The notes below the pieces were generated by a model, which was given only the letters and a program-made list of their open reading frames with translations, searched no databases and was not told where the DNA came from. This document shows, one piece after another, positions 33,492 through 61,124 of a DNA stretch of 64,000 nucleotides. The first letter of the stretch is position 1; each line of letters opens with the position of its first letter. This stretch comes from an uncultured Gemmatimonadales bacterium (GTDB lineage: Bacteria > Gemmatimonadota > Gemmatimonadetes > Gemmatimonadales > GWC2-71-9), in NCBI GenBank assembly GCA_963695555.1, contig CAVOGR010000001.1, forward strand, positions 544,001 to 608,000. The letters are read 5' to 3'. The position numbers and the translations under genes were made by a program.

Positions 33492-34946
33492 CTAGTCCAA
33501 AATCGACTGCCGGTGGCAGGCCAGGCACATCACCGGGCTCTTCGATTTCATCGTCTCGGCATCGAACCCGGGCCCGTGCGGGTTGATGCGCCGTCCGCCC
33601 AAGGCAGAGTGACACTGGAGGCAGTCACGCTGGGAATGGCAGGTGGCGCAGGTCTCCAAGCCCTGCCGTGCCGCCTGGCCGTGCCCGAAAATCCAGGTGG
33701 ACTTCCGGTTATGGAACCCGGTGTCGATCCGTCCGCTCGTGGCCAATCCTTGGCCCGTGTGACAGTCGCGGCAGAACGCCTCCGGGTTGTGACAGGTGGC
33801 GCACTCCACATCCTGACCGAAAGCCGGGGCCGAGTGCTGCAGGACGAAATTCTCCGGGTGGTACCGCCCGACCGGCTCTCCCGGGGTGCTCAGGGCTTCG
33901 GATCCCAAGTGGCAGGTGATGCACTGGTCCTGCGTGTGGCACGTGGTGCACGTGGTGGTCGCCGAGGCGGCAAGCGCCTTATGGTTTTCTGCGAACCCGG
34001 CCGTGTGGGTCGACGGGCGGCTGCCGCACGAGGACAACGCCCTGTGCCTGGTGGACGCTCGAGGCCTTTGCCCGGCCCGGAGCCAATTCCGGAATCGGAT
34101 CGGGCAGGGGAGACACGTGGCACGTGCGGCAACTCTGTTGGGTGTGACAGGTCGCGCAGGTCGCTATGTTGGCACGTGCCGACTCGCTATGGCTTGCCTG
34201 CCAGTCGCTGGCACCATGCGATGCCGGGATCGGATAGGTGACCGGGCGTTTCGACACGATCTCCGCCACCCGGGGATCGGACTCCAGCGACTGGATTGCC
34301 GGAACCGAGGCGGCGTTCACATGGCAGGTGCTGCACAGATCGCGCGAGTGGCACACGGCGCACCGCGCCGCGTTGTCGCTGGCCAACGGGCCATGCTCCA
34401 GCACGAAGTTGTCGCCATGGTCGGCCAGGCTTCGGGAACGCGAGGATCTCCTCCCCGGTGTAGTCACTGCGCCTCCCACGACGGCACGTGGCAGGTGGCG
34501 CACGGCGCATCGACCTCGTGCGTCTTTCCGGCCGCATGACACCCGAGACAGCCCCCCACCGAAACGCGCTGGATGTCCATCGCCTCACCGCCGGACTTCT
34601 GGTGGCAGGTGGCGCATTTGAAGTCCATGCCGAGGGCCGCCTTCTTCTTCGCGATGACCGTGGCATGGTCGAAGTTGAGGTTGCTCGGCGTGCGACTGCG
34701 GCCCTCCCAATCGACCCGCGGCTGGGTCTGTCCGTTGTGGCAGGCGCCGCAGAACGAGGCCGCTGGAATGGTGACCGCTCCCGCCTCCACTTTGTGGCAG
34801 CTTTCGCAGGTCGGGAAGAGATGTTGGTGCTTGAGATGCGGAAACGCGCTCTCCGCGATGGGCGCGCTGGTCCCGCTGCCTCCGCTGCTCCACGCCACCA
34901 GGCCCAGCATGACGGTGGCGGCTGCGGTTCCCAAACGGATGATCAT
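33492..34946 (-). CDS. Periplasmic ~16-heme cytochrome c (frameshifts near 34420-34470 and ~34035)
   Basis: Signal peptide; 5+4+7 CXXCH over three frames, many as doubled CxxCH-X4-CxxCH; ATG overlaps the porin stop. Confidence 0.8.
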
Positions 34947-36436
34947 GGCCGCCTCCCTGGCTCCGAGCCGATGTAGAACGCGAGGCCGAACGATGCCCTG
35001 AGCTGGTTCCAATCGGGCAAGCCGGATTCAGGGTCCCGGCGATCGTGGCGGTAGCGGTCCACCGCGCCCCACACCGTTCCGATCGGTGAATCGTATTTGA
35101 CGTTGCCGCCCACGCTCCAGACCCGGCCCTCGCCGACGCGGAACTCTCCCAGCTGCTGAAAGGCCGAGAATCGGGCACCGAGGCTGAGTTGGTCGAGCGG
35201 GCGGACATTCACCCGCGCCTCACCCGCGCTCAAGGCAGAGCCGAAGGTAAAGTCGAGATAATAGGACCCCTGCACGTCAACCTGCCTGGTGGCGCGCCAG
35301 TTAGCCGACGCTCCCGCTTTCCAGGTGCGGTCGGTCGTGACGATGAACGGGACCTCCGCCTCGGTGTCGGCATAGTCGCGTCGCTCGCCCTCCAGACGGA
35401 TCGAGAGATCGGACCGTGGTTGAATTCCCACTGCCAAGCCGTATCCGGTGTAGGGCACCGGACTGAAGGCGGCCCAGATGGTTTGCAGGTCGAATACCGG
35501 CCGGTAGCGGAACAGCCGCCCCTCGACGTACAGCTTGGAGATGGGCGACCATCCTACTGTCGCACCCGCCTTACCCCACCATCCCGTGCCCAGGTCGTAG
35601 TCTGCGTGGCCCTCGATCGATAGGTCACGGATGGGCCGGTAGGAGGCATCGACAGCGACCCGCTCCGACGCGATGGTGGAGCGGTTGGTTTGGATCTCCT
35701 TTTGGTAGATGGCCTCGATGGACCCGTTCGGGATCGGCCGCGCCGAGGCGCGGACACCGAACAGGTAGTTCCGGCGCCGCGGCTGGAATTCCTCGAGCGA
35801 GGCGAGGGCATCCGACGTGACCGGTTCTGCCAGGCCCCGCGCCAGGCCCCAGCCGCCGTAGGCCTCGAGCTCGATGCGGGCGGGCCGGAACCGCACCTCG
35901 GCCGACGCGCCGTCGTAGCCGTAGTACCCGAGGCCGCTCATCTGGAAGTCGCGTCCCAGGCGGAAGCGGTAGCGGTCTCGCTTGAGTTCCACGTAGCCCT
36001 GGATCAGGTCGAAATGGTCGTCCGAGCGGGGCCAGAACTCTTCGTCGCCCAGGGACGCACGAAGCCGGGTGCTCAGGTAGACCCTGAGGCCCTGGACGCC
36101 GAATCCCCATACCGAAAGGTCGAGGTCCTGCACCAGCGGGGCGGTCGAGACCACCTCGTCTGAGTCGTAGAAGAAGCAGTAGGCGGCCGCGGGCGCGCAG
36201 GTCACGAGCCGCCCGTTGAACGTGCTCCGCCCGCCCACCAGGGCCGTGTTGGCGATGGGCACGCTGTCGAGCCGGTACGGCCTGAGCTCGACGTACTGCG
36301 CCCGGGTGGAGGCGCGTCCGCGCCATTCCTGTGCGCGTGCGGGTGCGGGTGAGGAGGCCAGGATGGCGCCGAGAGATGCCAGGGCAACCAGAGCGGTGGT
36401 GGTCTTGTGGGTCCGAGTGACGACGGTCATTCGCAC
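34943..36436 (-). CDS. Outer-membrane beta-barrel protein, putative cytochrome-sheathing porin
   Basis: Signal peptide (ARA|Q); many amphipathic aromatic-rich beta-strands; lies between two multiheme cytochromes. Confidence 0.7.
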   Translation of the reverse strand: MRMTVVTRTHKTTTALVALASLGAILASSPAPARAQEWRGRASTRAQYVELRPYRLDSVPIANTALVGGRSTFNGRLVTCAPAAAYCFFYDSDEVVSTAPLVQDLDLSVWGFGVQGLRVYLSTRLRASLGDEEFWPRSDDHFDLIQGYVELKRDRYRFRLGRDFQMSGLGYYGYDGASAEVRFRPARIELEAYGGWGLARGLAEPVTSDALASLEEFQPRRRNYLFGVRASARPIPNGSIEAIYQKEIQTNRSTIASERVAVDASYRPIRDLSIEGHADYDLGTGWWGKAGATVGWSPISKLYVEGRLFRYRPVFDLQTIWAAFSPVPYTGYGLAVGIQPRSDLSIRLEGERRDYADTEAEVPFIVTTDRTWKAGASANWRATRQVDVQGSYYLDFTFGSALSAGEARVNVRPLDQLSLGARFSAFQQLGEFRVGEGRVWSVGGNVKYDSPIGTVWGAVDRYRHDRRDPESGLPDWNQLRASFGLAFYIGSEPGRRP

Positions 36437-36494
36437 GGGATCCTCCCGGAGACCGGGGCGCCGAAATTGAACTCGTCTCGACTATGATGATACA

Positions 36495-36529
36495 CACGAG
36501 CGGGCGGGAGTGAATCCCGCCCGCTCGTG
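36495..36529. terminator. 15-bp perfect stem-loop between lipoprotein cytochrome and porin genes
   Basis: CACGAGCGGGCGGGA-gtgaa-TCCCGCCCGCTCGTG; no U-tract. Confidence 0.55.
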
Positions 36530-36550
36530 CACTGCTTCAACTAGGCGACC

Positions 36551-38195
36551 CTAGCGGTTCCCCCTTGACCCGTGTCGTGTCGCCCTTCCCCCAGTCAGCG
36601 GATCCGCCGCACACCAGGCGGCATCGGACCCGCGACGTCGACGGTGAATCGGTACGCCGGGCAACATATAGGTCGACCTCACCTCGTTGATCGAGGCGAT
36701 GAGCAGGGCCTTCAGCAGGAACGGGTTGTGCACCCCTTCACCGCTGGCCTTGTGGGTGCCGATATGCTGGCCGAACACGTCGAAGCTTTCCCAGTTGTCC
36801 CTGGTATGGGTATAGGCCAGGAACGCGTTCCAGATCGCACCCTTCGCCACGGTCATCGGCGCCGATCCCGATGGATCGAATTGGGTCGAGTCGCCTTGGG
36901 CAACTACCTGCGGCAGGAGCCCCGCGTCGGTGGCGTCCATGACGTGGTTGGCATCAGTGTCAACCCACAGCTGGTCGAGCAGGAACTCCAGCTCTCTCGC
37001 GGAGCGTGCCGAACCGGGCTGCCATCTGGGCGTTGGTGGCGCCTACGTGGCACCCGGCACCGGTGCAGGCCACATACTGGCGCTGATTGTCGGCGCAGGT
37101 TCCGGTGGTCGGCAGGCCCTGTGCGTCGAGGCAGGGAATCGCCTCGAAGGTGTGGCCCACCGAGGTGAGCAGGAAGTCGCCCGTGGCCGCATCGGTCACG
37201 TCGAAGAAGTTGACGTGGCACGTGGCGCAGAGCTTGGTGTTGGCCGTGCTGCCGTGAGTCGAGGCGATCGAGTTGGTGTCATACACGAACCCGGTCGGGA
37301 TGTACCCCACGTTCTGGCCCAGCACCAGGAGACCCTGGGCGGCATGTGGCCCGTGCGAGGACCACGGTGTGCCTCTTCGCGAGTGGCAGGTGACGCAGAG
37401 GTGCTGGGTCGAGGCGACATTGATCGGCGCGCGCAGATTGGCATCATTGGGCGAGCCGTGCGGGTCGTGGCACACGATGCACACGATGTGCTCGGGCTGC
37501 CCGTTGTTCTTCTCGATATAGTTATCGGTCTCGAGGAACTTGACCGCCATCGCCGTCTTGCCCTCGTGGCACTCCATGCACGACGGCGTGGTGCTTGTGC
37601 CCGAGCTAACGGCCCAGGCGGGCGTCAGTGCGTGGGCCGACTCTTCCCACTGCTCCACGAACGGATGGTGCGCCCCTTCGTGGCATTCGCCGCATCCGGT
37701 GGTGAGGCCGGTGCTTACCGACATCGGCGCCAACGGCTGGGTGGCGTCCGGATCCTGAACGTGGTCATAGCCCGAGCCATGGCAGCTCTCGCACTGGACG
37801 TCCTCGTAGGCCTCGTCGGCTACCAGGTTGTAGCCGGCCGGCTGATCCAGGGCGTTGCCGAGCTCGCTGATGGTGTGGCAGCCCTCGCAGAATACCTGCG
37901 CGCCACCGCTCGACTGTAGGCCGGCCCACGCGTCCGCGTGGCCGGTCCGCTCCCACCCGGCCTGCTGCCCGACGTGGCAGTTGCCGCATGCGGTCAGCTT
38001 GGCGTCCTTGTCGAAGTAGCCCAGGAAGTTGAAGGTGGCATCAGGCGGCGGGTTGAAGATTTCCCGGTCGCGGAACACGACTTCCGTGTCGGTACAGGCG
38101 GCCAACACGGTCATCGCGCCCACGAAAGCCAGCGCGAGCCATACACCACGCGTCCGGCGCGGGGCATGTGTGATACGAACGAGTCTTGCTTTCAC
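36551..38195 (-). CDS. Lipoprotein multiheme cytochrome c (8 CXXCH + 1 CX4CH); frameshift ~36990, possibly another ~36650 (true stop may be 36595)
   Basis: GGAGGT RBS before GTG; LAAC lipobox; CGNCH, CEGCH, CESCH, CGECH, CMECH, CIVCH, CVTCH, CATCH, CTGAGCH; C-terminal GVHNP. Confidence 0.8.
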
Positions 38196-38522
38196 ATCCA
38201 CCTCCATTGCCATGGCCATTCAGGATTCCACCCGAATCGGGGGGAGACCCATTGAGGTGACCCTCATTGCACTTCGAAATCGGAGAACCGTACTCTGATA
38301 TGGGACTCAATCTGCAGCGGTCACCATGAAGAAGCCGTGAAACGCTGCGTAAAACTACGGACCTCTTCGACAGACGAAAAGGGAGATTAGAGTCCCTTAC
38401 GACAGTCTTCATGTTTTCTTCATGGTGTCGCAACGGTGCCAGCCGGATGTCCAGAAATGGCCGCGGGGCGTCCTGTACACAGGACGCCCCGCGGGTCGCT
38501 CAAATACGGTCCCGCTACAGGA

Positions 38523-38918
38523 TCAGGCGGGCTTGTGGCACACCGTACAGTCGGTATCGACGCGCCCCTTGTGATCGGCCGGCATGGCCTTCACATCGGG
38601 CACGGCCCCGGAGTGGCACATGGAGCACTTGTCGCGGCCCTCGAGAGCGTGAGGGATGGCCGTTGGGGCCTTGGTCAGCATGGCGGCGTCCGGCGCGTGG
38701 CACCACAGGCAGGTCTTGACCTCCAGGCCCTTGTGGCTTGCGGCCGGTGCGGCCGGGATGTCGGGCATGGCGCCCGAATGACACATGGAGCATTGATCCC
38801 GCCCCGCCAGGTCGTGATTCACGGCCGGCGGCTTGGCCGCCTGTGCCAAAGCGGGCACCACGCCCACGGTGAGCAAGAGGATCGCCCCGATTGGGACCAG
38901 ACGGAACAGGTTCTTCAT
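38523..38918 (-). CDS. Small periplasmic tetraheme cytochrome c (two tandem diheme repeats)
   Basis: Signal peptide; PPAVNH..GRDQCSMCH...H...CLWCH repeated as PTAIPH..GRDKCSMCH...H...CTVCH. Confidence 0.85.
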   Translation of the reverse strand: MKNLFRLVPIGAILLLTVGVVPALAQAAKPPAVNHDLAGRDQCSMCHSGAMPDIPAAPAASHKGLEVKTCLWCHAPDAAMLTKAPTAIPHALEGRDKCSMCHSGAVPDVKAMPADHKGRVDTDCTVCHKPA

Positions 38919-39009
38919 CGTGTCAGCCTCACTATCGAGAATCGGACGTCTACACGGCCACCGGAGCGAATCCGGCGCAGGCTCAAAGGTGTGAGCACGA
39001 AGTCTACTT

Positions 39010-39025
39010 TGCAAGGACCTTGCCA
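39010..39025 (-). promoter_or_regulatory. sigma54 (-24/-12) promoter TGGCAAGGTCCTTGCA
   Basis: TGGCA...TTGCA with exact GG-N10-GC spacing; intergenic, ~90 nt upstream of the tetraheme start. Confidence 0.7.
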
Positions 39026-39056
39026 GCCAGGCGGGCTTGTGCAATCCGCCGAGACT

Positions 39057-39096
39057 ACCCACCTACCTACCTACCTACCTACCTACCGACCGACCC
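39057..39096. repeat. Tetranucleotide microsatellite (ACCT)6 with degenerate ACCC/ACCG flanks
   Basis: ACCC (ACCT)6 (ACCG)2 ACCC read directly. Confidence 0.9.
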
Positions 39097-39102
39097 CCCG
39101 AC

Positions 39103-41244
39103 TCACTGCAGGACCGACCAGATCACCAGCACGATGAGGCTGATCCCGAGCGCCAACGCCATGAAGCCCAGGATGATCGACCACCCGTAGAAGACGGTCG
39201 ACGGGGGCTCGACTTCCAAACTCGCGAGCCGGCCCTCGGCCTTCAGCCGCTCGTATTCCAGCGGATGCTCCTCCTCCATGTACTGTTCGGTCGCGCTCCC
39301 GGTGAAGATGACGACGTCGATGGGAAATTTCTCCGGCCGGAGGTGCACGTTGAAGAAGTGGATAGTAAAGATGAAGCCGAGCGCCAAAAGGGCCTCGTCG
39401 CCATGCACGATGGTGGCGACGTTGAAGATCCACCCGGGGAAGAGCAGCGAGAAGAACTCGGGGAACCAGAGCAGGAGCCCCGAGCCCCCGATAATGGCAA
39501 CGCCCCAAAACACCGCCCAATAGTCGAACTTCTCCATATAGCTGAACCGATCGAATTTCGGCCGCGGACCGAGGCCCAAGAACCACCGGAACTGCTGCAC
39601 GATATCGAGGATGTCTTTCGGTTGCGGGACCATGGAGTTCGGTCCCCAGAGCAGGTCCTGCTTGTTCGTGCTCCGAAAGGCCCGGACCGTGAGGGTCGCG
39701 ATGTGGGTAAGGAAGTACCCGAACGTCAGAATGGCACAGAAGCGGTGGATGAACCCGGCGGTCTGGAAGCCCCCGATGGCCTTGACGAAGGTGCCCGCCC
39801 ACGGCGAGGACGAGAAGTGAAGTGGGATGCCGGTGATGACCAGCCCGAAGAACGACACGATGACGAACGCGTGGAGCGTGCGGTCGAGCACCGTGAACCG
39901 CTGGAGGTAGGGCCCGGGCCCCCGATGGGAGGCGCTGATGGCGCGCGTCACCCAGCGCCACGCCCAGGGCATGAGCGAGCGGCCCGATGATCGCATCCCG
40001 TCGATAGCCAGGCGCGTGAGCCAGAGCAGGGTGTGAAGCCCGAAGAAGCTGAACACCCCGACCAGGAGCGACGTCATCCCGAGCCAGGTCCAATACATCA
40101 AGGGATATCGGTTCCGCTGATGCTCGTCGGCGTGGGCGTGGTACCTGACGAAGTTCTGGTTGGCCTTCGGATGGCACCCGGAGCAGGTGGCCACCAGCTT
40201 GGTGGGGAACACCGACGATGCGGTGTCCGTGGCGGGCAGCATGTCGTGGGGTGTGTGGCAGTCGCTGCACTTGGCCGTCAGTCCGCCGCCCAACCGGGTC
40301 ACCTTGCCGTGGTAGGTCCCCAGGTAGGTCTCGAGCAATTCACCGTGGCACGACCCGCACTTGTCCGCCATGCCCAGGAACCAATCGGGCTGGTCCGCGC
40401 GTACCACCTCGTGTGAACTGTGGCACTCCACGCACACCGGAGCTTCTCGTCCCTCCGCGGTGCGGACGCCGGTCTCGTAGGCGGTGCCATGCGCCGACTG
40501 CATGTACACGTCGAGAATGCCGAGATGGCAGGCGCCGCAAGTCTCCGCGACGTTGGCGCGATTGACCGATGATTCAGCCGAGTCGGCCGGCAACACCTTG
40601 TGTGCCCGGTGGCAGTCGTTGCAGGTGGCTGAGACCAAGAGACCGGCGCGAGTGAGTGCGACCCCATGGACCGTGGTGTGGTATTGCGCCACGGCTTCGC
40701 GCGCCTGTGCTCCTTCCGGGCCCGAGAAATACGTCCCGATGATGTGCTCGTCGGCGTGACAGCTGCCGCAGAGCTCCGCCACATTCAGCGCGTGGGTCGG
40801 CGAGCGCCGGTCGTCGGCGCCGTACACGGTATGGGCGGCGTGACACGACACGCAGGTCGGGGTGTCGCCATTGGTGTCCACCGCATGGATGGACTCCGCC
40901 CAGTCGGCGCCCTGTGTTTCGTGACAGCCCGCGCACGGCACCGCCTTGGCAGGTGCCGCATGGGGAAACCCGGCGTCGAAGCCCGGATGGCAATCGGTAC
41001 AGGTCTGGCCGGCGTGCTTAGTGTCTCGGAGAATCGAGTCTGTGACGTAGAGAGTAGCCCGCTGGCCTAACTGCGGGACCTTCCCCATCAAGAACTGCCG
41101 GTCGCCATGGCACTTCTGGCAGTCGACCGACGAGGCCGGCCGGGCGCGGGCTTGGGCCCGAGGGGTCTGCGCTTCTATTCCATGGGACGTCACCACCAAG
41201 GCGCCGGCCAGGACGAGTAGCCGGGCGCCGTAGTGGCTGATCAT
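39103..41244 (-). CDS. CbcL-like fusion: 11-heme cytochrome c + FdnI/HydC-type diheme cytochrome b
   Basis: 11 CXXCH followed by TM helices; RTLHAF, FIHR, FDRFSYMEKFDYWAVFWG, HGDEALLA, HFFNVHLRPEKFP. Confidence 0.85.
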   Translation of the reverse strand: MISHYGARLLVLAGALVVTSHGIEAQTPRAQARARPASSVDCQKCHGDRQFLMGKVPQLGQRATLYVTDSILRDTKHAGQTCTDCHPGFDAGFPHAAPAKAVPCAGCHETQGADWAESIHAVDTNGDTPTCVSCHAAHTVYGADDRRSPTHALNVAELCGSCHADEHIIGTYFSGPEGAQAREAVAQYHTTVHGVALTRAGLLVSATCNDCHRAHKVLPADSAESSVNRANVAETCGACHLGILDVYMQSAHGTAYETGVRTAEGREAPVCVECHSSHEVVRADQPDWFLGMADKCGSCHGELLETYLGTYHGKVTRLGGGLTAKCSDCHTPHDMLPATDTASSVFPTKLVATCSGCHPKANQNFVRYHAHADEHQRNRYPLMYWTWLGMTSLLVGVFSFFGLHTLLWLTRLAIDGMRSSGRSLMPWAWRWVTRAISASHRGPGPYLQRFTVLDRTLHAFVIVSFFGLVITGIPLHFSSSPWAGTFVKAIGGFQTAGFIHRFCAILTFGYFLTHIATLTVRAFRSTNKQDLLWGPNSMVPQPKDILDIVQQFRWFLGLGPRPKFDRFSYMEKFDYWAVFWGVAIIGGSGLLLWFPEFFSLLFPGWIFNVATIVHGDEALLALGFIFTIHFFNVHLRPEKFPIDVVIFTGSATEQYMEEEHPLEYERLKAEGRLASLEVEPPSTVFYGWSIILGFMALALGISLIVLVIWSVLQ

Positions 41245-41257
41245 GCTGTGGAGCTGC

Positions 41258-43327
41258 TTACTGCCCAGTCGCACGGGTCGAGTCGGCAGCGGGCGCTGCC
41301 TGCGGCGCCATCCGGTGGCATCCATCGCACGGCAAGGGTGCGTTGTGGTCGACGCGATCGACGTGGCAGGTGGTGCAGACCTGCCGGCTCCATCCGGTCA
41401 GGTTCTTCACGGCCTCGCCGTGACATTGGACGCACGCCACGGTATGCGCGATCGCCTTCGTGTGTTTGGCCTTGACGCCGTCTTCCGGCCGGTGACAGTT
41501 GAGGCAGGTGGCCTTGGGTTGGTGATGCGAGTCGTGGCACGATTCGCAGTTGAGGTCCGTGGCCTTCATGCTCGGCGCCTTGTGGCAGGTAGCGCAGCTG
41601 AGGTCCGCGGTGAGATGGGTCTGATGCGGGAAGAGATCGCCGCCGGCCGTGGCGATCGTGCCCTCGGGCGCGCCGGAACCCCCCTGGTGGCACCGGGCGC
41701 AGTCCAGCGGTTGCGCCGCCGCGCGGTGATGACAGGACTGACAGTCGGCCGCCGACCCGAGCCGGGTCTTGCCGTGGTCCTCGATGGGTGTGTGGCAGGC
41801 CGTGCAGGCCAGACCGCCGCGCAGCACGTGCCGTTCGTGGCTGAACGATGTGCCCTTGAAGTCGACCGTCTTCCGTTCCGTGCCCAGGTGGCATTGCAGG
41901 CAGACGTTGGCGGTCACCGACGGTCCGAGGTCCACCGTGGGCACTGTGTAGGGCAGCCGGCCGGCAGTGACTGCCTGGCGCACAAACTGAAGCGTCTGGC
42001 GCAACAGTTCGTCCGCGAAGGCGATGTTGTGTGCCCCTTTGCCGTCCTGCACCAGCGCGACGTTGTCGTCCGCCAATTGGAAGAGCGAGTCGACCGCGGC
42101 CCGGGTCCGGACCGACGCGGCACCGCGCGTGCCCTTGGCACTTCGCACGACGCTGGCCACCCGGTCCACCTTCCGGTTCATCTCCTTCTGCCAGGCGGGC
42201 AGGATGTTGGCGTAGCGGGTCCCGTGGCATGACAAGCACGCCGCTTCCCCAGCCATCGAGACCTGCTCGTGTCCCTTCACCTGGGTCGTCAGCTCGTGGC
42301 ACCCCTTGCACGACACGTTGGCCAAGTACATCGAGCTCGGCATGGCCTCGGTGCCGTGACCACCGATTCCGGCATAGAGCTTCCGCTGCTGATCGTGCGT
42401 TTGTTTGTGGCACGAGCGGCAGTCGAGGTCGAAGGTCTCGCTGTGAGACAAGACCCGGTGTTCGATCGGGAGGTGGCACTGGGCGCACTCGACGTTGTGC
42501 TCCGCGATATGGATCTGGTGCATCACCGTCGTATTGCCGAACTGCTCGATCCGCTCGGGTTCGTTGTGGCAAATGAAGCAGCGCGACTGCTCGGCCGTGC
42601 CCAAGCCATCCGTGACGTTGTCGTGGCAGGACACACACGAAACCAGGTCGCGGACGTAATCCTCGTGATCGACGGTGAAACCGGCCGGCGACACCACCCG
42701 CGGCGGTGTCGGATGGCACCCGACGCAACCGCCGATGGGGTCGCCGGCCGGGCGGCCCTTGAAGTGGCAGAGGAAGCAGGTGGAGGCCGTCACGGTGAGG
42801 TGTTGGCCCTGCACGATCTGCGAGTGGCAGCTGGTGCAGCGGAGGTCCTTCCCCCGCCTGAGCTCGCCGAGATGAGACGAGTGGTCGAAGCGGACGCCCT
42901 CGAAGCTGACCTCCCCTTCCAACTGACGGGTCACATGGCAGCCTGAGCGGAGACACGCGGCGTCTTCGATCTCGGCCCACGGCCTGAGGCCGTAGGTGCC
43001 CGTCACGTATTTCACGACTTGATTTGCCGCCTGGAGTTTGCCCATGGCCTCCGCTTTGATGCCGGGCGCGTAATGGCACTGGATGCATGGCACGAAGTTG
43101 TGGGAGGACGTCTTCCAGGACTCGTAGTACGGGACCATGTTGTGGCAGTTGTTGCAGAAGCCCGGCTGCGCGCTGTACTCCACGAAGCCGACCGTTCCCA
43201 CGCCTGCAAGGATGACCAGCAGAATGCCAAACTGAATGGCCAGGCGCAGCGGGCGGGCGCGGAATATGGCCGACAGCCCGCGAGCGCTGGAACTCACCTT
43301 CTCCTGGGGTTCGTCAGGCGTGGTCAT
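41258..43327 (-). CDS. Membrane-anchored NapC/NirT-like multiheme cytochrome (21 CXXCH + 1 CX4CH)
   Basis: N-terminal TM, YS.QPGFCNNCHNM.PYYESWKTSSH..VPCIQCH (NapC/NirT-like start), then cytochrome c3/c7-like F.H..H modules. Confidence 0.85.
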   Translation of the reverse strand: MTTPDEPQEKVSSSARGLSAIFRARPLRLAIQFGILLVILAGVGTVGFVEYSAQPGFCNNCHNMVPYYESWKTSSHNFVPCIQCHYAPGIKAEAMGKLQAANQVVKYVTGTYGLRPWAEIEDAACLRSGCHVTRQLEGEVSFEGVRFDHSSHLGELRRGKDLRCTSCHSQIVQGQHLTVTASTCFLCHFKGRPAGDPIGGCVGCHPTPPRVVSPAGFTVDHEDYVRDLVSCVSCHDNVTDGLGTAEQSRCFICHNEPERIEQFGNTTVMHQIHIAEHNVECAQCHLPIEHRVLSHSETFDLDCRSCHKQTHDQQRKLYAGIGGHGTEAMPSSMYLANVSCKGCHELTTQVKGHEQVSMAGEAACLSCHGTRYANILPAWQKEMNRKVDRVASVVRSAKGTRGAASVRTRAAVDSLFQLADDNVALVQDGKGAHNIAFADELLRQTLQFVRQAVTAGRLPYTVPTVDLGPSVTANVCLQCHLGTERKTVDFKGTSFSHERHVLRGGLACTACHTPIEDHGKTRLGSAADCQSCHHRAAAQPLDCARCHQGGSGAPEGTIATAGGDLFPHQTHLTADLSCATCHKAPSMKATDLNCESCHDSHHQPKATCLNCHRPEDGVKAKHTKAIAHTVACVQCHGEAVKNLTGWSRQVCTTCHVDRVDHNAPLPCDGCHRMAPQAAPAADSTRATGQ

Positions 43328-51838: not shown

Positions 51839-54151
51839 CGCCGCCCCCGCTCCACCCGTCAAGCGGGTGCGGCTGCATGTGACGGGCGTGGTGCAGGGTG
51901 TGGGCTTCCGTCCCTTCGTCCACCGCCTGGCGCTCCTGCATGGGCTGGGCGGGTGGGTCCGGAATGCGTCGGGCGACGTGGAAATCGAAGTCGAAGGCCC
52001 GAGCACCGCGCTGGAGCAATTCCTCGAGAGCCTGGAAACCGACGCCCCTCCACTCGCCAGGATCGAACGGGTGAACGACGGAGCCGCAGCCGCCCGAAGG
52101 GGAGACGGAGTTCCAGGTTCGTCACGAGCCGGGCCGAGGCCAACCGCCGCCAGCCGGTCTCTCCCGACGTGGCCATCTGTCCGGCGTGCGAAGCCGAACT
52201 GTTCGATCCGACCAACCGGCGGTATCGCTATCCCTTCATCACGTGCACCGACTGCGGGCCGCGCTACACGGTGATCGGTACCATGCCGTACGATCGGGAG
52301 CGCACCAGCATGGGTGCGTTCACCCAGTGCAACGCGTGTCTCCTCGAGTACCAAACGACCAGCCGACCGCCGGTACCACTCGGAGACCAACAGCTGCGCC
52401 GAATGCGGCCCCCAGGTCTGGTTCAGCGCCATCGAGACTCCCAGCCAGTACGTCGCACGGCCTCGATGCCATCGAGCACGCGGCCCGTCTACTCGACCAG
52501 CGGACGGATCGTGGCGGTCCGCGGGCTCGGCGGCTTCCACTCGGCGGTCGATGCCACCGACGCCAAGGCGGTCGTGCGGCTCCGACAGCGCAAGCGGCGC
52601 GAAGCCAAGCCCCTGGCCGTGATGGTGCGAACCCTGGCGGATGCCCGTGAGTTGGCCGTCATCGAGCCGGAGGAGGCCAGGCTCCTGTCGTCGTCGGCGC
52701 GCCCGATCGTGCTCGTGGCTCCCACGACCAATACCCCGCTCACCGGGGAGGTATTCCCGCGGCTCGACCGTGTCGGGATCATGCTCGCCTACACGCCGCT
52801 GCATCACCTCCTGCTCGACGCCGTCGCCCGCCCGCTGGTCATGACCAGCGGCAACGTCAGCGATGAGCCCATCGCTACCGGGAACGCCGAAGCGTTGGTG
52901 CGGCTCCGTACCCTCGCTGACGGCTTCCTGCTGCACGACCGGGAAATCATCTCACGCTACGATGACTCGGTGGTTCGGCTGGTGGACGGACATCCGATAT
53001 TCCTGCGCCGGGCTCGTGGCTATGCGCCGCTCCCGCTCGACCTCCCGGTCGCGAGTCCGGTCCCGCTCGTTGCGGTCGGTCCGCACCTCAAGAACACGCT
53101 CACCCTGGTGCACGGACAGCGGGCGTACGTGAGCCAGCATATCGGAGATCTGGAAAACCTGGAGACGCTCGAACACTTCCAGGCGACGCTCCATCGCCTG
53201 CGCCGCCTGTTCGACATCGACCCGCAGGTCGTCGTTCGCGACCATCACCCCGGGTATCTCTCGACCCGCGTAGCCGACGAATTGGACTGTGCCCGTGTCC
53301 TGGCCATTCAGCATCATCACGCCCATGTCGCGGCCGTCATGGCCGAGTATGGAAGAACCGCGCCGGTGATCGGGGTGGCCTATGACGGAACGGGCTATGG
53401 TGACGACGGGAAGGTGTGGGGGGCGGAAATCTTCGAGGCCGACCTGCTCGGGTACCGTCGGCTGGCGCATCTCACGTATGCGCCGCTTCCCGGTGGTGAG
53501 CGGGCGGTCCGGGCTCCGTGGCGGACGGCGTTGGGGTATCGCTCGCTCGATCATGGGGCAGCGGCAGCTTTTGCCCTTGCCTTCCGCGGCGTGGACCCGG
53601 CGGAGCTCGAACTCGCCGGCCGACAAATCGATCGGGGCATCAATAGCCCGATGGCCTCTTCCATGGGCCGGCTGTTCGATGCGGCCTCCGCCGTATTGGG
53701 CTTGCGCCACCGCGTGCGGTACGAAGGACAGGCGGCGATGGAACTCGAATCCGTGGCGGGCCGGAGGAACGGAAACGAACTCCCCTACCGGCTCGAGGAC
53801 GATGGAGCGGGCGGCTGGGTGTTGGATCCGCTCCCGCTGCTCGTCACCATCGGTGAGCGCCGCCAGCGTGGCGCAGAGGTGGAGGACCTCGCCGCGGATT
53901 TCCATGCAACGGTTGCAGCGGCTACCGTTCGACTCGTGCTTCGAGCCGGCGATGCGACTGGACGGCGCACGGTGGTGTTGAGCGGTGGAGTCTTTCAGAA
54001 CGCCCTGCTTCTCAGGTTGGTGAGCACCGATCTTGCGGCCCGCGGACTGGAGGTGCTCGTACCGCGCCTCCTGAGCCCGAACGATGGCGCGATCAGCTAT
54101 GGCCAGGCGGCAGCGGCAGCCGCCATGCTGCGCCGCGAGTCCGCCGCCTAG
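51831..54151 (+). CDS. hypF: Carbamoyltransferase HypF (frameshifts in first ~700 nt)
   Basis: GVVQGVGFRPF acylphosphatase domain, Zn fingers, MTSGN, QHIGDL, QHHHAH, DGTGYG, SSMGRLFD, PNDGAISYGQ. Confidence 0.93.
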
Positions 54152-54164
54152 GAGGGAATCCCCA

Positions 54165-54461
54165 ATGTGTCTCGGCATACCCGGTCGCATCATCGACATT
54201 CGCGATGACGGCGGACTTCCCATGGGCACGGTGGATTTTGCCGGGGTGCGCCGAGAGGTGTGTCTGGCCTACGTCCGAGATGAAGTGAAGCCCGGCGATT
54301 ACGCCATCGTTCACGTGGGCTTCGCTATCAGCAAAGTCGATGAGGAGGAAGCACGCCGGACCTACGAGCTGCTCAAGGAAATGAGCCAGCTCGACGAGCT
54401 CGAATGGATGGAAGAGGTGGCAGAGCAAGGGCTCGGGACGCTCGACGAGACGCCGTCATGA
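54165..54461 (+). CDS. hypC: Hydrogenase chaperone HypC
   Basis: [18 protein letters not shown]. Confidence 0.95.
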
Positions 54462-55576
54462 AGTTCCTCACCGAGTATCGCGATCCCGCCTTGGCCCGGA
54501 GACTCATCGATCGGATCTTGAGCACGGCCACGCGGCGATGGGTCCTGATGGAAGTGTGCGGCGGTCAAACGCACACCATTGTGAAGCAGGGCATCGACGA
54601 GTTATTGGAATCCGCGATCGAGATGATTCACGGGCCCGGCTGCCCGGTCTGCGTGACACCGCTCGAGCAGATCGACAAGGCGCTCCACCTCGCGTCCCGC
54701 CCCGACGTCATTTTCACCTCGTTCGGCGACATGTTACGGGTGCCTGGCAGCACCTGTGACCTCCAACAGGTCCGCTCCCGCGGCGGGCAGGTGCGCGTGG
54801 TGTACTCGCCGCTCGATGCATTGGAACTGGCCCGAAGCAACCCCGATCGCCAAGTGGTGTTCTTCGCCGTGGGATTCGAGACGACGGCGCCGGCCAACGC
54901 CATGGCGGTCTGGCGCGCCCGCGAGCTCAATGTTTCGAATTTCAGCGTCCTGGTGTCGCACGTGACCGTACCGCCGGCCATGACGGCCATTCTCGAGTCG
55001 CCGGACAACCGGGTCGAGGGATTCCTGGCCGCGGGCCATGTGTGCACGGTGATGGGATGGACCGAATACGAGCCGATCGCCGAGCGTTACCGGGTGCCGA
55101 TCGTCGTCACCGGGTTCGAGCCGCTGGATCTCTTGGAGGGCATGTACCTGGCGATCCGGCAGCTGGAGGAGGGGCGCTACGAGGTCGAGAACCAGTATGT
55201 GCGGTCGGTGCGGCGCGCGGGCACGGTACCGGCGCGCGAGCTCGTGGCCAAGGTCTTCGAGCCGGTGGATCGGCAATGGCGTGGCATCGGCACCATTCCG
55301 CGGAGTGGATTGGGTCTCAGGCCCGAATTCTCCGATTTCGACGCGGAACTGCGATTTCGGCTGGGGGAGCTGCACGTCACCGAGCCCGAAGCATGCCGCG
55401 CCGGGGACGTACTACGCGGCCGGATCAAGCCATTCGAATGCGAAGCCTTCGGCACGCTGTGCACTCCGGAACGGCCCCTCGGCGCGCCGATGGTGTCGAC
55501 CGAGGGGGCCTGCGCGGCGTACTACAACTACGGACGTTTCCGGGCGGATCAGCATCAGGCAGCGCGCCGTGAGTGA
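54458..55576 (+). CDS. hypD: Hydrogenase formation protein HypD
   Basis: [38 protein letters not shown]. Confidence 0.95.
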
Positions 55577-56633
55577 AGACGTGTCGGTGGCATCAGGCTT
55601 GAATTGTCCGATTCCCTTCGAGGCGACCGACCGGGTTCAACTGGGTCACGGGTCGGGTGGCAAACTGAGTGCTGCCCTCCTGCGCGAACGCTTCCTGCCT
55701 CATTTCGGGAACCCCGCACTCGATCAACTCGCTGACGCCGCGGTGGTCACGTTGGGTGGAGTGGATATTGCGGTGTCCACCGACAGCTTCGTCGTGAGCC
55801 CACTCGAATTTCCCGGCGGAAACATCGGTTCCTTGGCCGTGCACGGGACCGTGAACGACCTGGCGATGATGGGGGCGCGGCCCATGTTCCTGTCCGCGGG
55901 CTTCGTCTTGGAAGAGGGGCTTCCGTTCGACGTGTTGGACCGGGTGATCCACGCCATGGCTGAAAGTGCCCGCGCGGCGGACGTGTTGGTGGTGGCGGGC
56001 GACACCAAGGTTGTCGAGCGGGGCAAGGCCGACGGATTGTTCATTAATACGGCAGGTATCGGACGGCTGGGCCCCTCGTTCCGCCCGGCTCCCGGCAATG
56101 CCCGCCCCGGCGACGTGATCCTCGTCAGCGGAGCCATCGCCCGCCACGGCATGGCCATCATGGCGGTACGCGAGGGGATCGCCTTCGACGCGCCCATCGA
56201 AAGCGATTCGGCCTCCCTCTATCCGCTGGTCCGGCTGCTCGAGCAAGCCGTGGGCACCGACGTGCACGTGCTGCGCGATCCGACGCGCGGCGGGGTCGCG
56301 AGCGCGCTCAACGAAATCGCGGCCGCCTCGAAGGTCGGGATGGCGCTCGAGGAGGGTGCGATTCCCGTTCCGGGACCGGTGGCGGGGGCCTGCGAGATGC
56401 TCGGGCTCGATCCGCTGTATGTGGCCAACGAAGGTGTCCTCATCGCCTTCGTGCCCGAACACCGGGAAGCTGAGGCACTCGAGGTGTTGCGGGCGCACCC
56501 GCTGGGGCGGGATGCCACCCGGATCGGCCAGGTGGTCGACGAGCATACCGGCTTCGTCGTGCTCCACACCGGCCTGGGCGGGCGCCGGATCGTCGACCTC
56601 CTTCCCGGTGATCAACTTCCTCGTATTTGCTGA
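55569..56633 (+). CDS. hypE: Carbamoyl dehydratase HypE
   Basis: HGSGG, TDS.VV, GTVNDL, GDTKVV, RDPTRGG, ANEG, C-terminal LPRIC. Confidence 0.95.
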
Positions 56634-56705: not shown

Positions 56706-57482
56706 ATGACGACGTCCAGTACGTGCCCGGCGTGCGGAGCCTCCGCAGCAGGGAAGTTCTGCAGCCGGTGTGGGGCGAGTCTTGGCGGAGGCTCGTGCAG
56801 CGGATGTGGCGCGGCGTTGCCGAAGGGCGTCAAGTTCTGCCCTGGCTGCGGCGCCCCGGCATCGGGTGCCGCCGTCGCCCACGTCGGCCGGACCGACCGC
56901 ACTCCCTGGATCATCGCGGCGGTTGCGACGGTGGGCCTGCTCGCCGCGCTCCTCATCATGGTCTCGCGGAGCTCCTCGGGCCGGACCCCGGACCCTCTCG
57001 GGGCGCCTGCCGCTGGTGCGGCTGTGGGAGCGGGTGGCCTGCCCGATTTGAATGCGATGGGTCCGCGTGAGCGCTTCGATCGGCTTTACAATCGAGTCAT
57101 GCGGGCGGCAGAGGGCGGAGACCCGAACACGGTGTCCAACTTCGGGCCGATGGCTCTGCAGGCGTACGACATGCTTCCGGAAGCCGACCGCGATGCCGAT
57201 GCGCGGTACCACGCGGCGATGATCCACCTCCATTCCGGCGGTGCGGCACAGGCGGTGGCCCTGGCCGACACGATTTCGGCCCAGGTCCCCGCCCATCTGT
57301 TCGGCTTCGTGATTCGTGGCACAGCGGCGAAGCTGGCGACTGACAAGGCGGCGCTGGCCAAGGAGTATGCGGGGTATCTGAAGAACTACGATGCAGAAAT
57401 GAACGTCGGCCGGCGGGAGTATGGCGAGCATCCGGCCATTCTGGAGTCGTTCCGTCAGGAGGCGCAGGCGGCCGGTGGATGA
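56706..57482 (+). CDS. Double zinc-ribbon membrane protein with helical (TPR-like) C-terminal domain
   Basis: CPACG, FCSRCG, CSGCG, FCPGCG; one TM. Confidence 0.7.
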   Translation: MTTSSTCPACGASAAGKFCSRCGASLGGGSCSGCGAALPKGVKFCPGCGAPASGAAVAHVGRTDRTPWIIAAVATVGLLAALLIMVSRSSSGRTPDPLGAPAAGAAVGAGGLPDLNAMGPRERFDRLYNRVMRAAEGGDPNTVSNFGPMALQAYDMLPEADRDADARYHAAMIHLHSGGAAQAVALADTISAQVPAHLFGFVIRGTAAKLATDKAALAKEYAGYLKNYDAEMNVGRREYGEHPAILESFRQEAQAAGG

Positions 57483-57548: not shown

Positions 57549-57974
57549 ATGAAGGCCGGAACCAAGTTCTTTCTCGGAGCTGTGTTGATCGTCGGCAGCG
57601 TCGGGTTCTTGATTTTTGAAGGCGTGCGGCAGACCGGGGTCTACTTCCTGACCCCAACCGAGTTGGCGCAGAAGACTGCCCAGGATCCCACGTTCCATAG
57701 TGTCGGGCTCAAGATGGGGGCCCGGGTCGTGCCCGGCACCATCGAGCGCGATGCGGCGACCCAGACCGTCGAGTTCAGCGTGACGGATGGCACCACGTCC
57801 TACCCGGTCATCTACCAGGGCCTGGCGCCCGACACCTTCAACGACGAGCAGGAAATCGAGGTGGTGGTCGAGGGCCGATTGGGCACGGACGGGGTCTTTC
57901 ACGCCACGACCCTCCTGGCCAAGTGCGGATCTCGCTATGAAGCGGAATACGACACGGCCGAGCCTGAGGCCTGA
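57549..57974 (+). CDS. ccmE: Heme chaperone CcmE, CxxxY variant
   Basis: YFLTPTE, G.V..G.I, V.Y.G..PD.F, VVVEG, LLAKCGSRY. Confidence 0.9.
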   Translation: MKAGTKFFLGAVLIVGSVGFLIFEGVRQTGVYFLTPTELAQKTAQDPTFHSVGLKMGARVVPGTIERDAATQTVEFSVTDGTTSYPVIYQGLAPDTFNDEQEIEVVVEGRLGTDGVFHATTLLAKCGSRYEAEYDTAEPEA

Positions 57975-57977
57975 TCC

Positions 57978-59999
<2,022 letters not shown>

Positions 60000-60000
60000 C

Positions 60001-60606
60001 ATGACACGACGTCTCTCGGCGCATCACATTCTCCGGCGCGGCCTCCTGCCGCTATTCATGCTCGCGCTGGCCGGCGCGCTGGGCGCCCAAGAGGCCGCCC
60101 CGTCTTCGCAGGAGGAAGCGGGCCGGCTCTACAATCCTGGCGCGGTGCAAGAGCGCACCCCAACGGTCGACCTGGACAACGACGAGTACATCAAGGAGCT
60201 CGAGAAAGGCCTTCGCTGTACCTGCGGGTGTAACCTCGACATCTACACCTGCCGCACGACTGACTTCTCGTGCGCCACGTCGCCGGCGCTCCACCGAGAG
60301 ATCCTGGCGCTCCACAACGACGGGAAGACCGCCCAGGAAATCATGGACGACTTCGTCGCCCGGTACGGTGACGAGGTGCTGATGTCGCCGAAGCCCGAGG
60401 GGTTCAATCTGGCTGGCTATCTCGTGCCCGGCATCGTCATGGTCATAGCCGGGCTGCTGCTGACGGCGCATCTCCTGAAGAGGCGTAGGGAACAGGTGGT
60501 GGTTCCGGTGGCGGACGCGAGCGCCCCATCGATGCCGCCAGGGATCAATGGCAGTCCGGATGAGCTCGAGCGCCTGCGCCAGGAATTGCTCAGGGAGGAC
60601 GGCTGA
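60001..60606 (+). CDS. ccmH: CcmH-like apocytochrome thiol reductase
   Basis: Signal peptide; LRCTCGC; G.T..EI...FVARYG..VLM.P; TM. Confidence 0.75.
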   Translation: MTRRLSAHHILRRGLLPLFMLALAGALGAQEAAPSSQEEAGRLYNPGAVQERTPTVDLDNDEYIKELEKGLRCTCGCNLDIYTCRTTDFSCATSPALHREILALHNDGKTAQEIMDDFVARYGDEVLMSPKPEGFNLAGYLVPGIVMVIAGLLLTAHLLKRRREQVVVPVADASAPSMPPGINGSPDELERLRQELLREDG

Positions 60607-61124
60607 TGGTGTTGGAAGCGCTGGCCGCCGGCATGGTAGGTTTGCTCGCGCTCTGGTTCGTGCTCGACCCCGTGATACGTCCCGCGCCGCCGGCACCACC
60701 CATCTATGAGCCGCCCGACCCCCAGGAGACCGCGAAGGGGCAGGCGCTGGCCGCGCTCCGCGAGATCGAGTTCGATCGGGAGACCGGCAAGCTGTCGGAC
60801 GCGGACTACGATGAGCTGCGGAAGACCTACACGGCGGAAGCGCTGGTCGCGATGCGGGCCGAGGAAGGCGGGGCCGGGGCCGGCGCCGGCCCCGATGAAA
60901 TCGAGCAGATGGTTGCGGCGCGCGTCCGAGCGCTCCGCGGCGGAGCCGGCGTGGCGGACGGCGTCGTCTGCCCGACCTGCGGCCCGCGCCCCGAAGACGA
61001 GGCAGCGTTCTGTTCGTCGTGCGGACGGTCGCTGAACGGGGCCGGCGCATGCACCGGGTGCGGCGCGCCGCTCACGCCAGGCGCCCGGTTCTGCGGCAAC
61101 TGCGGAACCAAGGTTGCGGCCTGA
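60606..61124 (+). CDS. CcmI-N-like membrane protein with C-terminal double zinc ribbon
   Basis: TM; LREIEFDRETGKLSDADYDEL; CPTCG, FCSSCG, CTGCG, FCGNCG. Confidence 0.65.
   Translation: MVLEALAAGMVGLLALWFVLDPVIRPAPPAPPIYEPPDPQETAKGQALAALREIEFDRETGKLSDADYDELRKTYTAEALVAMRAEEGGAGAGAGPDEIEQMVAARVRALRGGAGVADGVVCPTCGPRPEDEAAFCSSCGRSLNGAGACTGCGAPLTPGARFCGNCGTKVAA

Follow-up and report, generated by a model that had tools for sequence, protein, structure and literature searches.

A candidate outer-membrane electron conduit encoded beside an uptake [NiFe] hydrogenase in Gemmatimonadota

In the genome of an uncultured Gemmatimonadales bacterium (assembly GCA_963695555.1, contig CAVOGR010000001.1), a stretch of 64,000 nucleotides (positions 544,001 to 608,000 of the forward strand; here called the window) carries between its positions 33492 and 61124 two divergent arms of genes, one encoding multiheme cytochromes and a β-barrel, the other an uptake [NiFe] hydrogenase with its maturation proteins. 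The best reading of this locus, to which we assign a probability of about 55%, is a chain that as a whole would lead electrons from H2 to quinone and along an envelope-spanning route to an external acceptor. A conduit tied to H2 uptake, a system undescribed in this phylum, is partly supported by comparative genomics and by structure prediction.

The minus arm (33492–46257, 12.8 kb) comprises nine genes and is separated from the plus arm by a spacer of 514 bp, in line with the divergent region of about 510 bp described in an earlier reading of the letters and their open frames (hereafter, the sequence-only reading). By motif count, its six cytochromes contain 16 + 9 + 4 + 11 + 22 + 9 heme motifs, i.e. 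69 CXXCH and 2 CX4CH, exactly the figure which that reading gave for some 13 kb of minus strand; signal peptides, membrane anchors and a lipobox are found among these proteins. The order of the plus arm is hyaA, hyaB, hyaC, hyaD, hypA, hypB, hypF, hypC, hypD, hypE, a zinc-ribbon gene, ccmE, ccmF, ccmH and a gene for a protein of 172 aa. The gene content proposed for both arms is present, but alignment to a congener showed that eight of the genes are not open frames in this assembly, a point that the sequence-only reading had missed for the hydrogenase arm. Window genes with broken frames were read through the intact congener, G002, a genome of the same genus whose contig C7 aligns with the window end-to-end (61,846 columns, 92.8% identity).

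Three adjoining genes of the minus arm form the putative outer-membrane trio:

36595–38219, minus strand: nonaheme lipoprotein with 8 CXXCH motifs, 1 CX4CH motif and the lipobox LAAC, 539 aa long in the congener; split in the window into 36960–38219 and 36551–36940 by two frame-breaking insertions.
34943–36436, minus strand: β-barrel (495 aa) with a signal helix and about 22–24 strands; AlphaFold2 model of nearly all strands, with a predicted local distance difference test score (pLDDT) of 86.7 and a predicted template modelling score (pTM) of 0.79.
33492–34946, minus strand: 16-heme cytochrome (482 aa in the congener), lying in the window in the frames 33492–34037, 33979–34542 and 34464–35012, with five frame-breaking indels.

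All nine heme motifs of the lipoprotein are kept in each of the 52 stop-free orthologs (55 matches, from which three with stops were dropped). The family profile matched OmhA (6qvm, E 9.4e-20), OcwA (6i5b, E 3.6e-16) and MtrA (6r2q_A, E 7.1e-8), and, at E 3.6e-7 to 3.3e-6, also hydroxylamine oxidoreductase and nitrite reductases of the octaheme kind. OmhA and OcwA are described, in the part of PMC12203936 devoted to them, as the terminal reductases at the cell surface of two iron-reducing Gram-positive bacteria; judged by profile similarity, the lipoprotein is a distant relative of these surface Fe(III) reductases, and it may likewise be exposed at the surface. Like OcwA of Thermincola potens (6I5B), it has nine hemes (539 vs 526 aa). 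The match to OmhA of Carboxydothermus ferrireducens (6QVM) is partial, covering profile positions 120–389, and one of the nine motifs is of the CX4CH type in most members of the locus family. Unlike OcwA and OmhA, whose hosts are Gram-positive, the locus protein is a diderm lipoprotein encoded beside a barrel; unlike the corresponding proteins of the MtrC/OmcB lineage, it belongs to the lineage of OmhA and OcwA.

The barrel protein matched no Pfam or NCBIfam family. With its model as the query, Foldseek returned 406 Protein Data Bank chains at E ≤ 0.001, headed by 24-strand ushers (FimD, TMq 0.47–0.50), porins and TonB-dependent receptors; the best fold matches are barrels of 22–26 strands, and MtrB (6r2q_B) stands at rank 25 (E 3.2e-8, TMq 0.40). 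Among 42 members of the barrel family, the general porin families Porin_4 and OMP_b-brl were matched by eight and six, respectively. The barrel thus modelled appears to represent a Gemmatimonadota family without a name, and to be wide enough (at least about 20 strands) to hold a cytochrome. Relatives at E ≤ 0.001 number 216, and every named source is a Gemmatimonadota or Gemmatimonadales metagenome-assembled genome. Barrel loci drawn from species-representative genomes number 79; 77 of them are assigned to Gemmatimonadota, Gemmatimonadales, Gemmatimonadaceae, Longimicrobiales, Gemmatimonas or 'Candidatus Kutchimonas', and the other two (L035, L057) are labelled only 'uncultured bacterium'. The closest loci (98% and 96% identity) are both assigned to Gemmatimonadales.

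In the third protein, 16 CXXCH motifs and 14 further histidines are invariant across 43 orthologs, and the N-terminal part is similar to HmcA (E 2e-14), a high-molecular-weight cytochrome. When barrel and 16-heme cytochrome were modelled together, the interface score ipSAE was 0.77 (median of three runs), whereas the highest of its three controls scored 0.00; a score of 0.77 is attained by 116 of 157 solved complexes and by 2 of 215 mismatched pairs. The runs share at least 72% of their contacts, with a partner pLDDT of at least 75. In the 357–411 predicted contacts, cytochrome residues 245–475, which bear nine hemes, meet almost every strand of the barrel, and the most conserved barrel stretch (311–325) contacts the conserved cytochrome stretch 420–440. 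The C-terminal half of the cytochrome is therefore predicted to thread the barrel with the geometry of MtrA inside MtrB. A homolog of the 16-heme protein flanks the barrel in 77 of the 79 loci and a homolog of the lipoprotein in 70, many of the misses being loci cut by contig ends. The barrel model, the threading score, the lipobox and the kinship with OmhA and OcwA all lend in silico backing to the outer-membrane barrel and lipoprotein cytochrome that the sequence-only reading had postulated, and we consider it probable that the trio is an envelope-spanning conduit.

Geobacter encodes clusters such as OmaB-OmbB-OmcB, and ExtHIJKL next to the bc-type ExtMNOPQS. As in the Geobacter conduits and in Shewanella MtrCAB, the locus has adjoining genes for a multiheme cytochrome, a barrel and a multiheme lipoprotein; unlike them, it has a barrel outside their barrel families and a wire with 16 hemes and an Hmc-like N-terminal part. 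For other phyla, the sections of PMC5566968 (He et al. 2017) and PMC13264449 on many-heme porin-cytochrome clusters propose PCC3 and PCC4 from genomes; petB and petC are close by in some of these. With PCC3, known from genomes alone, the locus shares a porin, many-heme extracellular and periplasmic cytochromes and an inner-membrane b-type protein; compared by its description in those sections of PMC5566968, PCC3 differs in being mostly from Proteobacteria, in having a conserved five-helix inner-membrane protein and in lacking a hydrogenase. DFE_0461–0465 of Desulfovibrio ferrophilus was considered as the closest system and rejected, since its description in the relevant part of PMC9769857 gives NHL-repeat proteins and no apparent porin.

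The tie between trio and hydrogenase was evaluated in 401 Gemmatimonadota genomes, sampled evenly over the phylum. The barrel was found in 181 genomes (80 of 147 genera) and HyaB in 108; both occurred in 104, HyaB alone in four, the barrel alone in 77 and neither in 216. Where both were found, they lay on one contig in 42 genomes and on different contigs in 45, mostly fragmented assemblies, the remaining 17 having no listed barrel position. Among the 42 same-contig pairs, 35 are at most 25 kb apart and 19 at most 6 kb; these come from 18 genera in 3 families. Loss of synteny was the outcome that the sequence-only reading had named as speaking against it; in the event, the window is collinear with the congener and the arms are linked across the phylum.

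The neighbourhood takes at least three forms. In 14 genomes, and also in G010 and L050, hyaA is directly divergent from the lipoprotein gene, with about 5.2 kb between barrel and hyaB. In five genomes of family f2 including G021, and also in L086, the lipoprotein, barrel, 16-heme and hyaABCD genes follow one another on the same strand, at about 3.7 kb. In the window, G002, G004 and others, the arms are divergent with the string of quinol-oxidase genes in between (9–24 kb). An adjacency retained through such rearrangement is the strongest evidence here of a functional tie. As a separate observation, six loci of one clade (L023, L026, L028, L032, L033 and L041) have hypA, hypB and hypF, with hypC, hypD and hypE divergent from them, after the trio and the gene for a 4-heme cytochrome.

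Table 1 of Zhong and Shi (PMC6295460) lists one CbcL and two ImcH homologs for Gemmatimonadetes. A survey of marine Gemmatimonadota (PMC11316326) reports, in its passages on these genes, that HyaABCD is widespread and that iron-gene matches include Cyc2, DFE_461–465 and three MtrABC operons, with a direction that is undecidable; the two sets are not connected in those passages. No statement on a hydrogenase–conduit linkage in Gemmatimonadota was found in the excerpts of full-text literature that bear on the subject, and the supplementary figures of PMC11316326 may show gene neighbourhoods of this kind.

The plus arm contains the following genes:

46772–47924, plus strand: hyaA, small subunit, with the twin-arginine translocation (Tat) motif SRRDFL, the CTGC proximal-cluster motif and a C-terminal membrane helix; two frame-breaking deletions.
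47917–49646, plus strand: hyaB, group 1 [NiFe] large subunit; 14 single-base insertions, in three frames in the window.
49643–50424, plus strand: hyaC, b-type cytochrome membrane subunit (Ni_hydr_CYTB match); 15 frame-breaking indels, intact in the congener.
50414–50925, plus strand: hyaD, endopeptidase (HycI, 92.4 bits); one frame-breaking deletion.
50918–51178, plus strand: hypA, short (86 aa; HypA positions 1–54); in one fused frame with hyaD in the window, a separate gene in the congener.
51175–56633, plus strand: hypB, hypF, hypC, hypD and hypE (Pfam); five indels each in hypB and hypF, none in hypC, hypD and hypE.
56706–57482, plus strand: zinc-ribbon protein (258 aa) between hypE and ccmE (Zn_Ribbon_1, DZR).
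57549–60606, plus strand: ccmE, ccmF and ccmH (System I), intact (Pfam CcmE, CcmF_C, Cytochrom_C_asm, CcmH).
60606–61124, plus strand: membrane protein (172 aa) with an N-terminal membrane helix and C-terminal zinc ribbons (matches to zinc-ribbon families only).

The Tat motif of HyaA can be read in the window itself, and the congener HyaA matches TIGR00391 hydA with 443 bits. The congener HyaB is intact, with the motifs RICGVC and DPCMACGVH and a C-terminal tail of 15 residues; its closest solved relative is 3myr_B from Allochromatium vinosum (E 9.8e-235). By its Tat signal, Ni-binding motifs and tail, the enzyme is assigned to the group 1 membrane-bound uptake [NiFe] hydrogenases. The plain CTGC and WGN motifs of the small subunit presumably mark an O2-sensitive rather than an O2-tolerant type, and the lack of extra proximal-cluster cysteines would set it apart from the O2-tolerant E. 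coli Hyd-1. With the A. vinosum enzyme (3MYR) and with E. coli Hyd-1 and Hyd-2, the system shares a Tat-exported small subunit, both Ni motifs, a cytochrome b, an endopeptidase and the hyp set. The hydrogenase operon of A. vinosum includes isp genes, and the locus differs from it in having hyaC, not isp. The 86-aa HypA has no CxxC pairs for a zinc site; its Pfam match covers positions 1–54 of 112, the same short span as in relatives.

The sequence-only reading had listed for this arm a hydrogenase with cytochrome b, hyaD, hypABFCDE and ccmE, ccmF, ccmH and ccmI. Pfam bears out all of these except ccmI, in whose place (60606–61124) there are only zinc-ribbon matches. Homologs of this 172-aa protein (40–59% identity) adjoin ccmH in L060, L061, L063, L069 and L071, and it may be a lineage-specific maturation factor. 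The locus had also been called a self-contained island. It holds ccmE, ccmF and ccmH rather than a complete ccmABCDEFGH(I) set, and is not self-contained because ccmB and ccmC lie on another contig (C7), while the ccmF of the window is the sole copy in the genome. A whole-genome search found a second [NiFe] hydrogenase, possibly also served by these hyp genes. The G+C content is even over the window (0.62–0.68) and hence gives no compositional hint of an island, an idea that was rejected.

The rest of the minus arm encodes candidate inner-membrane and periplasmic components:

45814–46257, minus strand: Rieske-fold membrane protein (147 aa), with weak Rieske_2 and PetC matches.
44561–45808, minus strand: 415-aa cytochrome b, b6/bc1 type, whose C-terminal part is like subunit IV (Pfam Cytochrome_B, 174.6 bits).
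43314–44564, minus strand: 416-aa cytochrome c with 9 hemes (9 CXXCH motifs), a signal peptide and a C-terminal membrane helix (multiheme Pfam families).
41258–43327, minus strand: 22-heme cytochrome (689 aa) with 21 CXXCH motifs, 1 CX4CH motif and an N-terminal NapC/NirT-type anchor (Cytochrom_NNT, 30.8 bits; NrfH, E 1.8e-11).
39103–41325, minus strand: CbcL-like protein (740 aa) with 11 CXXCH motifs and an FdnI/HydC-like b-type membrane domain (30.5 bits to Ni_hydr_CYTB, just over the cut-off of 30.1).
38523–38918, minus strand: 131-aa cytochrome with 4 hemes (4 CXXCH motifs) and a signal peptide, a candidate shuttle (cytochrome c7/c3 families).

Pfam matches and motif counts agree with all the inner-membrane (cytochrome b, 9-heme, CbcL-like, NapC-like) and periplasmic (4- and 16-heme) proteins that had been proposed. 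The quinol-oxidase genes (cytochrome b/9-heme, 22-heme and CbcL-like) are tightly packed, overlapping or almost abutting, with a 4-base overlap between the 9-heme and cytochrome b genes; the 4-heme gene stands beside the trio in many relatives. The closest solved relative of the cytochrome b is the cytochrome b6 in 2zt9 (E 3.3e-56), and its match to the NCBIfam family cytb_ExtP (207.6 bits) is under the cut-off of 290; a cytochrome b gene close to ExtP thus shares a locus with the trio, a point of likeness to the Geobacter Ext clusters. The 740-aa protein matches the FdnI gamma subunit (E 1.4e-9; 1kqf_C, E 0.0047) and is of the CbcL design as judged on domain architecture.

The protein adjoining the cytochrome b has a Rieske fold but is devoid of the CxH and CxxH ligands of the cluster: at the motif positions the window has GCILEW and SPCTYV, vs CPHLGC...CACHNG in the Rieske proteins of other modules, and both histidine ligands of the [2Fe-2S] cluster are missing from the window protein and from five of five orthologs (57–100% identity), with two cysteines kept. 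The CxH...CxxH ligands are retained in the Rieske proteins of other modules of the phylum (L039, L059, L089). With its Rieske-fold subunit devoid of the histidine ligands, the cytochrome b/9-heme module cannot, on this evidence, run an ordinary Q cycle.

Like the quinol oxidases known from the inner membranes of Geobacter and Shewanella (CbcL, ImcH, CymA and the bc-type Cbc complexes), this part of the locus includes a fused c/b-type protein, a NapC/NirT anchor and a cytochrome b paired with a multiheme cytochrome c. Unlike CbcL, ImcH and CymA, its proteins carry 11 and 22 hemes vs 9 and 4–7, three types occur in one tight string, and the Rieske-fold partner is cluster-less. Elsewhere in the window (22456–27084, plus strand) there is a second respiratory cluster. 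Its products are two multiheme proteins, one with 4 hemes (403 aa) and one with 9 (422 aa in the congener), together with a Rieske-type protein of 160 aa, a cytochrome b and a protein of 168 aa; the 9-heme and cytochrome b genes contain nine and five frame-breaking indels, respectively, in the window. Cytochrome b/9-heme pairs like that of the second cluster are found near the barrel trio in many relatives.

From these components we infer the electron-transfer steps, the localisation of the proteins, the direction of flow and the acceptor as follows. HyaAB would oxidise H2 on the periplasmic side, and the cytochrome b HyaC would pass the electrons to menaquinone. The quinol could be re-oxidized by the cytochrome b/Rieske-fold/9-heme module, by the 22-heme NapC/NirT-type protein and/or by the CbcL-like protein. 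A periplasmic relay, probably the 4-heme cytochrome, would then hand the electrons over to the N-terminal half of the 16-heme cytochrome, whose C-terminal half, with its nine hemes, would cross the outer membrane inside the barrel. Finally, the surface nonaheme lipoprotein would deliver them to an acceptor that is insoluble or does not permeate the cell, for instance an oxide of Fe(III) or Mn(IV), humic matter, an electrode or another cell acting as partner.

Several points weigh against this pathway. As regards the conduit, localisation and binding are predictions. None of the 42 members of the barrel family matched a known porin-cytochrome barrel family (such as MtrB/PioB), and membership of a named family was rejected; the fold match to MtrB is no better than those to ushers or porins, and the score of the predicted complex may owe something to likeness with the solved Mtr complex. 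The kinship of the OmhA/OcwA family with nitrite and hydroxylamine reductases makes a soluble substrate possible, and CbcL-type proteins work both ways, as stated in the relevant part of PMC6295460.

As regards the tie to H2, 77 of the 181 genomes with the barrel are without this hydrogenase, which indicates that the trio does not depend on H2, and in seven of the 42 genomes with a same-contig pair the distance is 78 kb to 2.4 Mb. G017 has barrel and hydrogenase on separate contigs, and the 23 kb upstream of its hyaA contain no cytochrome gene. Among five genomes of the clade in which hyp genes adjoin the trio, two have no PF00374 match, one has only weak partial matches, and in the other two the large subunit is about 770 kb and about 17 kb away; a hydrogenase next to the trio was accordingly rejected as a rule for this clade, and in the two genomes without a [NiFe] large subunit match the maturation genes are without a found client. 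Moreover, the genomes are related and not independent samples, so that the co-occurrence figure overstates the case.

The spacer between the arms provided no shared regulatory site either:

46258–46771, no strand: divergent intergenic region (514 bp), with two blocks conserved in the congener, at about 46383–46435 and 46607–46662 (A+T-rich).

A perfect palindrome, CAACGG-AAT-CCGTTG, is present at 46417–46431, and the sequence outside the two blocks is poorly conserved. The pattern CAACGG-N3-CCGTTG has one exact copy in the window and three matches with up to two mismatches, vs 4.6 expected; among 114 loci it recurs in L010 only, which is a stretch from the congener G002. The A+T-rich block, too, was seen in the window and the congener but not elsewhere. 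Neither a sigma-70-like promoter nor a terminator was found in 46200–46820. A shared site was therefore rejected, as the palindrome is neither enriched nor found beyond L010 and no promoter-like site was seen, and there is thus no sequence evidence of co-regulation. An estuary RNA library (run X1) contains contigs on both arms within 33400–53399 with 90–99% likeness; these come from relatives, in which the locus may thus be transcribed there, but DNA carry-over is possible, so they say little on expression.

Some of the same facts would also fit a mere cluster of anaerobic respiration genes, in which the hydrogenase feeds a quinone pool open to any terminal reductase or oxidase, and the proximity of the trio, hyp and ccm genes is due to shared regulation or to descent. 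Judging from HyaC and the membrane anchor of HyaA, the enzyme would hand its electrons directly to quinone, which forms a shared pool; ccmE, ccmF and ccmH, as the only copies in the genome, must serve every c-type cytochrome, and 17 of the 79 barrel loci have ccm genes next to the trio. Gaps of 158–303 bp ahead of the 4-heme, lipoprotein and barrel genes permit separate transcripts within the minus arm, and the barrel genomes without such a hydrogenase tell in the same direction. However, the barrel is present in 104 of the 108 genomes with the hydrogenase, and at least three arrangements, including one with hyaA right after the 16-heme gene on the same strand, are hard to account for without selection for joint inheritance or expression. 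We regard mere clustering of this kind as unlikely.

The current could, conversely, run inward: the trio would supply the quinone pool with electrons drawn from a cathode, from a partner cell or from Fe(II) or Mn(II), with the hydrogenase as a second lithotrophic input or as an outlet that evolves H2. According to the passages concerned in PMC6295460, CbcL/MtoC- and Mtr-type systems occur in Fe(II) oxidisers and Fe(III) reducers alike, and many-heme porin-cytochrome clusters were first proposed for Fe(II) oxidisers, as told in part of PMC5566968; the cluster-less Rieske-fold protein beside the cytochrome b also speaks against a quinol-oxidising Q cycle of the ordinary kind. On the other hand, the closest solved relatives of the lipoprotein reduce Fe(III) at the surface. 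The hydrogenase is almost never found without the trio, whereas the trio is often found without the hydrogenase, which fits a donor in need of a sink, and the CTGC and WGN motifs of the small subunit are presumably those standard in O2-sensitive uptake enzymes. Inward flow is, in our judgement, quite improbable.

It is very unlikely that the trio is instead an outer-membrane reductase for a soluble or colloidal substrate (nitrite, hydroxylamine, sulphite, selenite/tellurite or a compound like dimethyl sulphoxide), the barrel being a scaffold or channel. The profile matches of the lipoprotein to octaheme nitrite reductases and hydroxylamine oxidoreductase could be explained in this way, as could the fact that ExtP, the NCBIfam family nearest to the cytochrome b, is annotated as part of a 'selenite/tellurite reduction operon'; but OmhA and OcwA are matched far more strongly, and the 16-heme wire is predicted to fill the barrel, leaving no channel.

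It should be noted that 49 frame-breaking, single-base indels affect eight genes of the locus, with 42 of them in hyaA, hyaB, hyaC, hyaD, hypB and hypF and seven in the 16-heme and lipoprotein genes; the window–G002 alignment has 116 gap events. The other seven genes of the minus arm, hypA, hypC, hypD, hypE and the ccm genes have none. As a result, Pfam locates the large subunit over three overlapping frames and the small subunit over two, HyaD being run together with HypA, and HypB with the beginning of HypF, and in a whole-genome search the large subunit was unbroken in three genomes of the same genus and in three pieces in the window genome.

These frameshifts are almost certainly sequencing or assembly errors and not signs of gene decay. 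Most of the events are single-base insertions outside homopolymers. Once the indel columns are removed, the genes have no internal stops and their products are 88–97% identical to those of the congener; the substitutions in hyaB are distributed over codon positions as 34/38/160, a third-position bias like that of intact neighbours. In hypF, the indels are confined to the first 700 bases, the remainder and hypC, hypD and hypE being clean. Over 285 kb compared with G002 there are 446 frame-breaking events, clustered so that 67 of 139 two-kb bins are free of them and 39 contain at least three; tuf has 17, nusG 13, rplJ and cysS eight each, rplA seven, and gyrB, ligA and the gene for a 1092-aa kinase have none. 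One patch spans the start of rpoB, rplL, rplJ, rplA, rplK, nusG, tuf and cysS. Because such essential genes are equally hit and cannot all be pseudogenes, the frameshifts are taken as an artefact. Contigs from four public runs on 33400–53399 are without the inserted letters wherever they cover them, among the 12 places listed; in the cytochrome arm, one of the runs (X2) has five pieces that match the window letter for letter, and none of the public runs contained more than 0.19 of the sampled words.

Loss of anaerobic metabolism, with the hydrogenase-arm, 16-heme and lipoprotein genes as true pseudogenes, might be read from the number of broken frames and from a dense patch on a cluster of O2-sensitive benzoyl-CoA-reductase- or hydroxyacyl-CoA-dehydratase-like genes, but it is scarcely credible and was rejected, given equally dense patches in tuf, nusG, rplJ, rplA, rplK, rplL and cysS, patch edges that disregard gene borders, no substitution-derived stops and a preserved third-position bias, the prevalence of single-base insertions outside homopolymers, and the clean contigs of the four runs at the places listed. 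The patch just mentioned covers two HGD-D and two BcrAD/BadFG genes; like that from rplL to cysS, it lies outside the window, these patches being at about 632–638 kb, 476–480 kb and 462–466 kb of genome contig C1. Completeness is 87% (14 contigs) for this genome vs 98% for the congener, probably on account of the indel patches. Gene calls from this assembly consequently under-report hydrogenases, cytochromes and ribosomal genes.

Gemmatimonadota is a common phylum of soils and sediments, known mainly for aerobes and N2O reducers, and to our knowledge only a handful of its strains have been cultured. The linkage described here unites two separate survey observations, Hya hydrogenases and multiheme clusters, into one hypothesis of H2-fuelled electron export. 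We tentatively propose, at somewhat short of an even chance, that the phylum carries an undescribed type of conduit, made up of an OmhA/OcwA-like lipoprotein, a 16-heme wire, a barrel of its own and three kinds of quinol oxidase, which is tied to an uptake hydrogenase and would serve to respire solids or partner cells with H2. If this is true, the outer-membrane conduit would have a new composition, with a terminal reductase of Gram-positive type on a diderm barrel, and H2 would allow an abundant phylum to respire minerals or humic matter, electrodes or partner cells, with a bearing on the cycling of iron, manganese and humic matter and on the turnover of H2 in soil.

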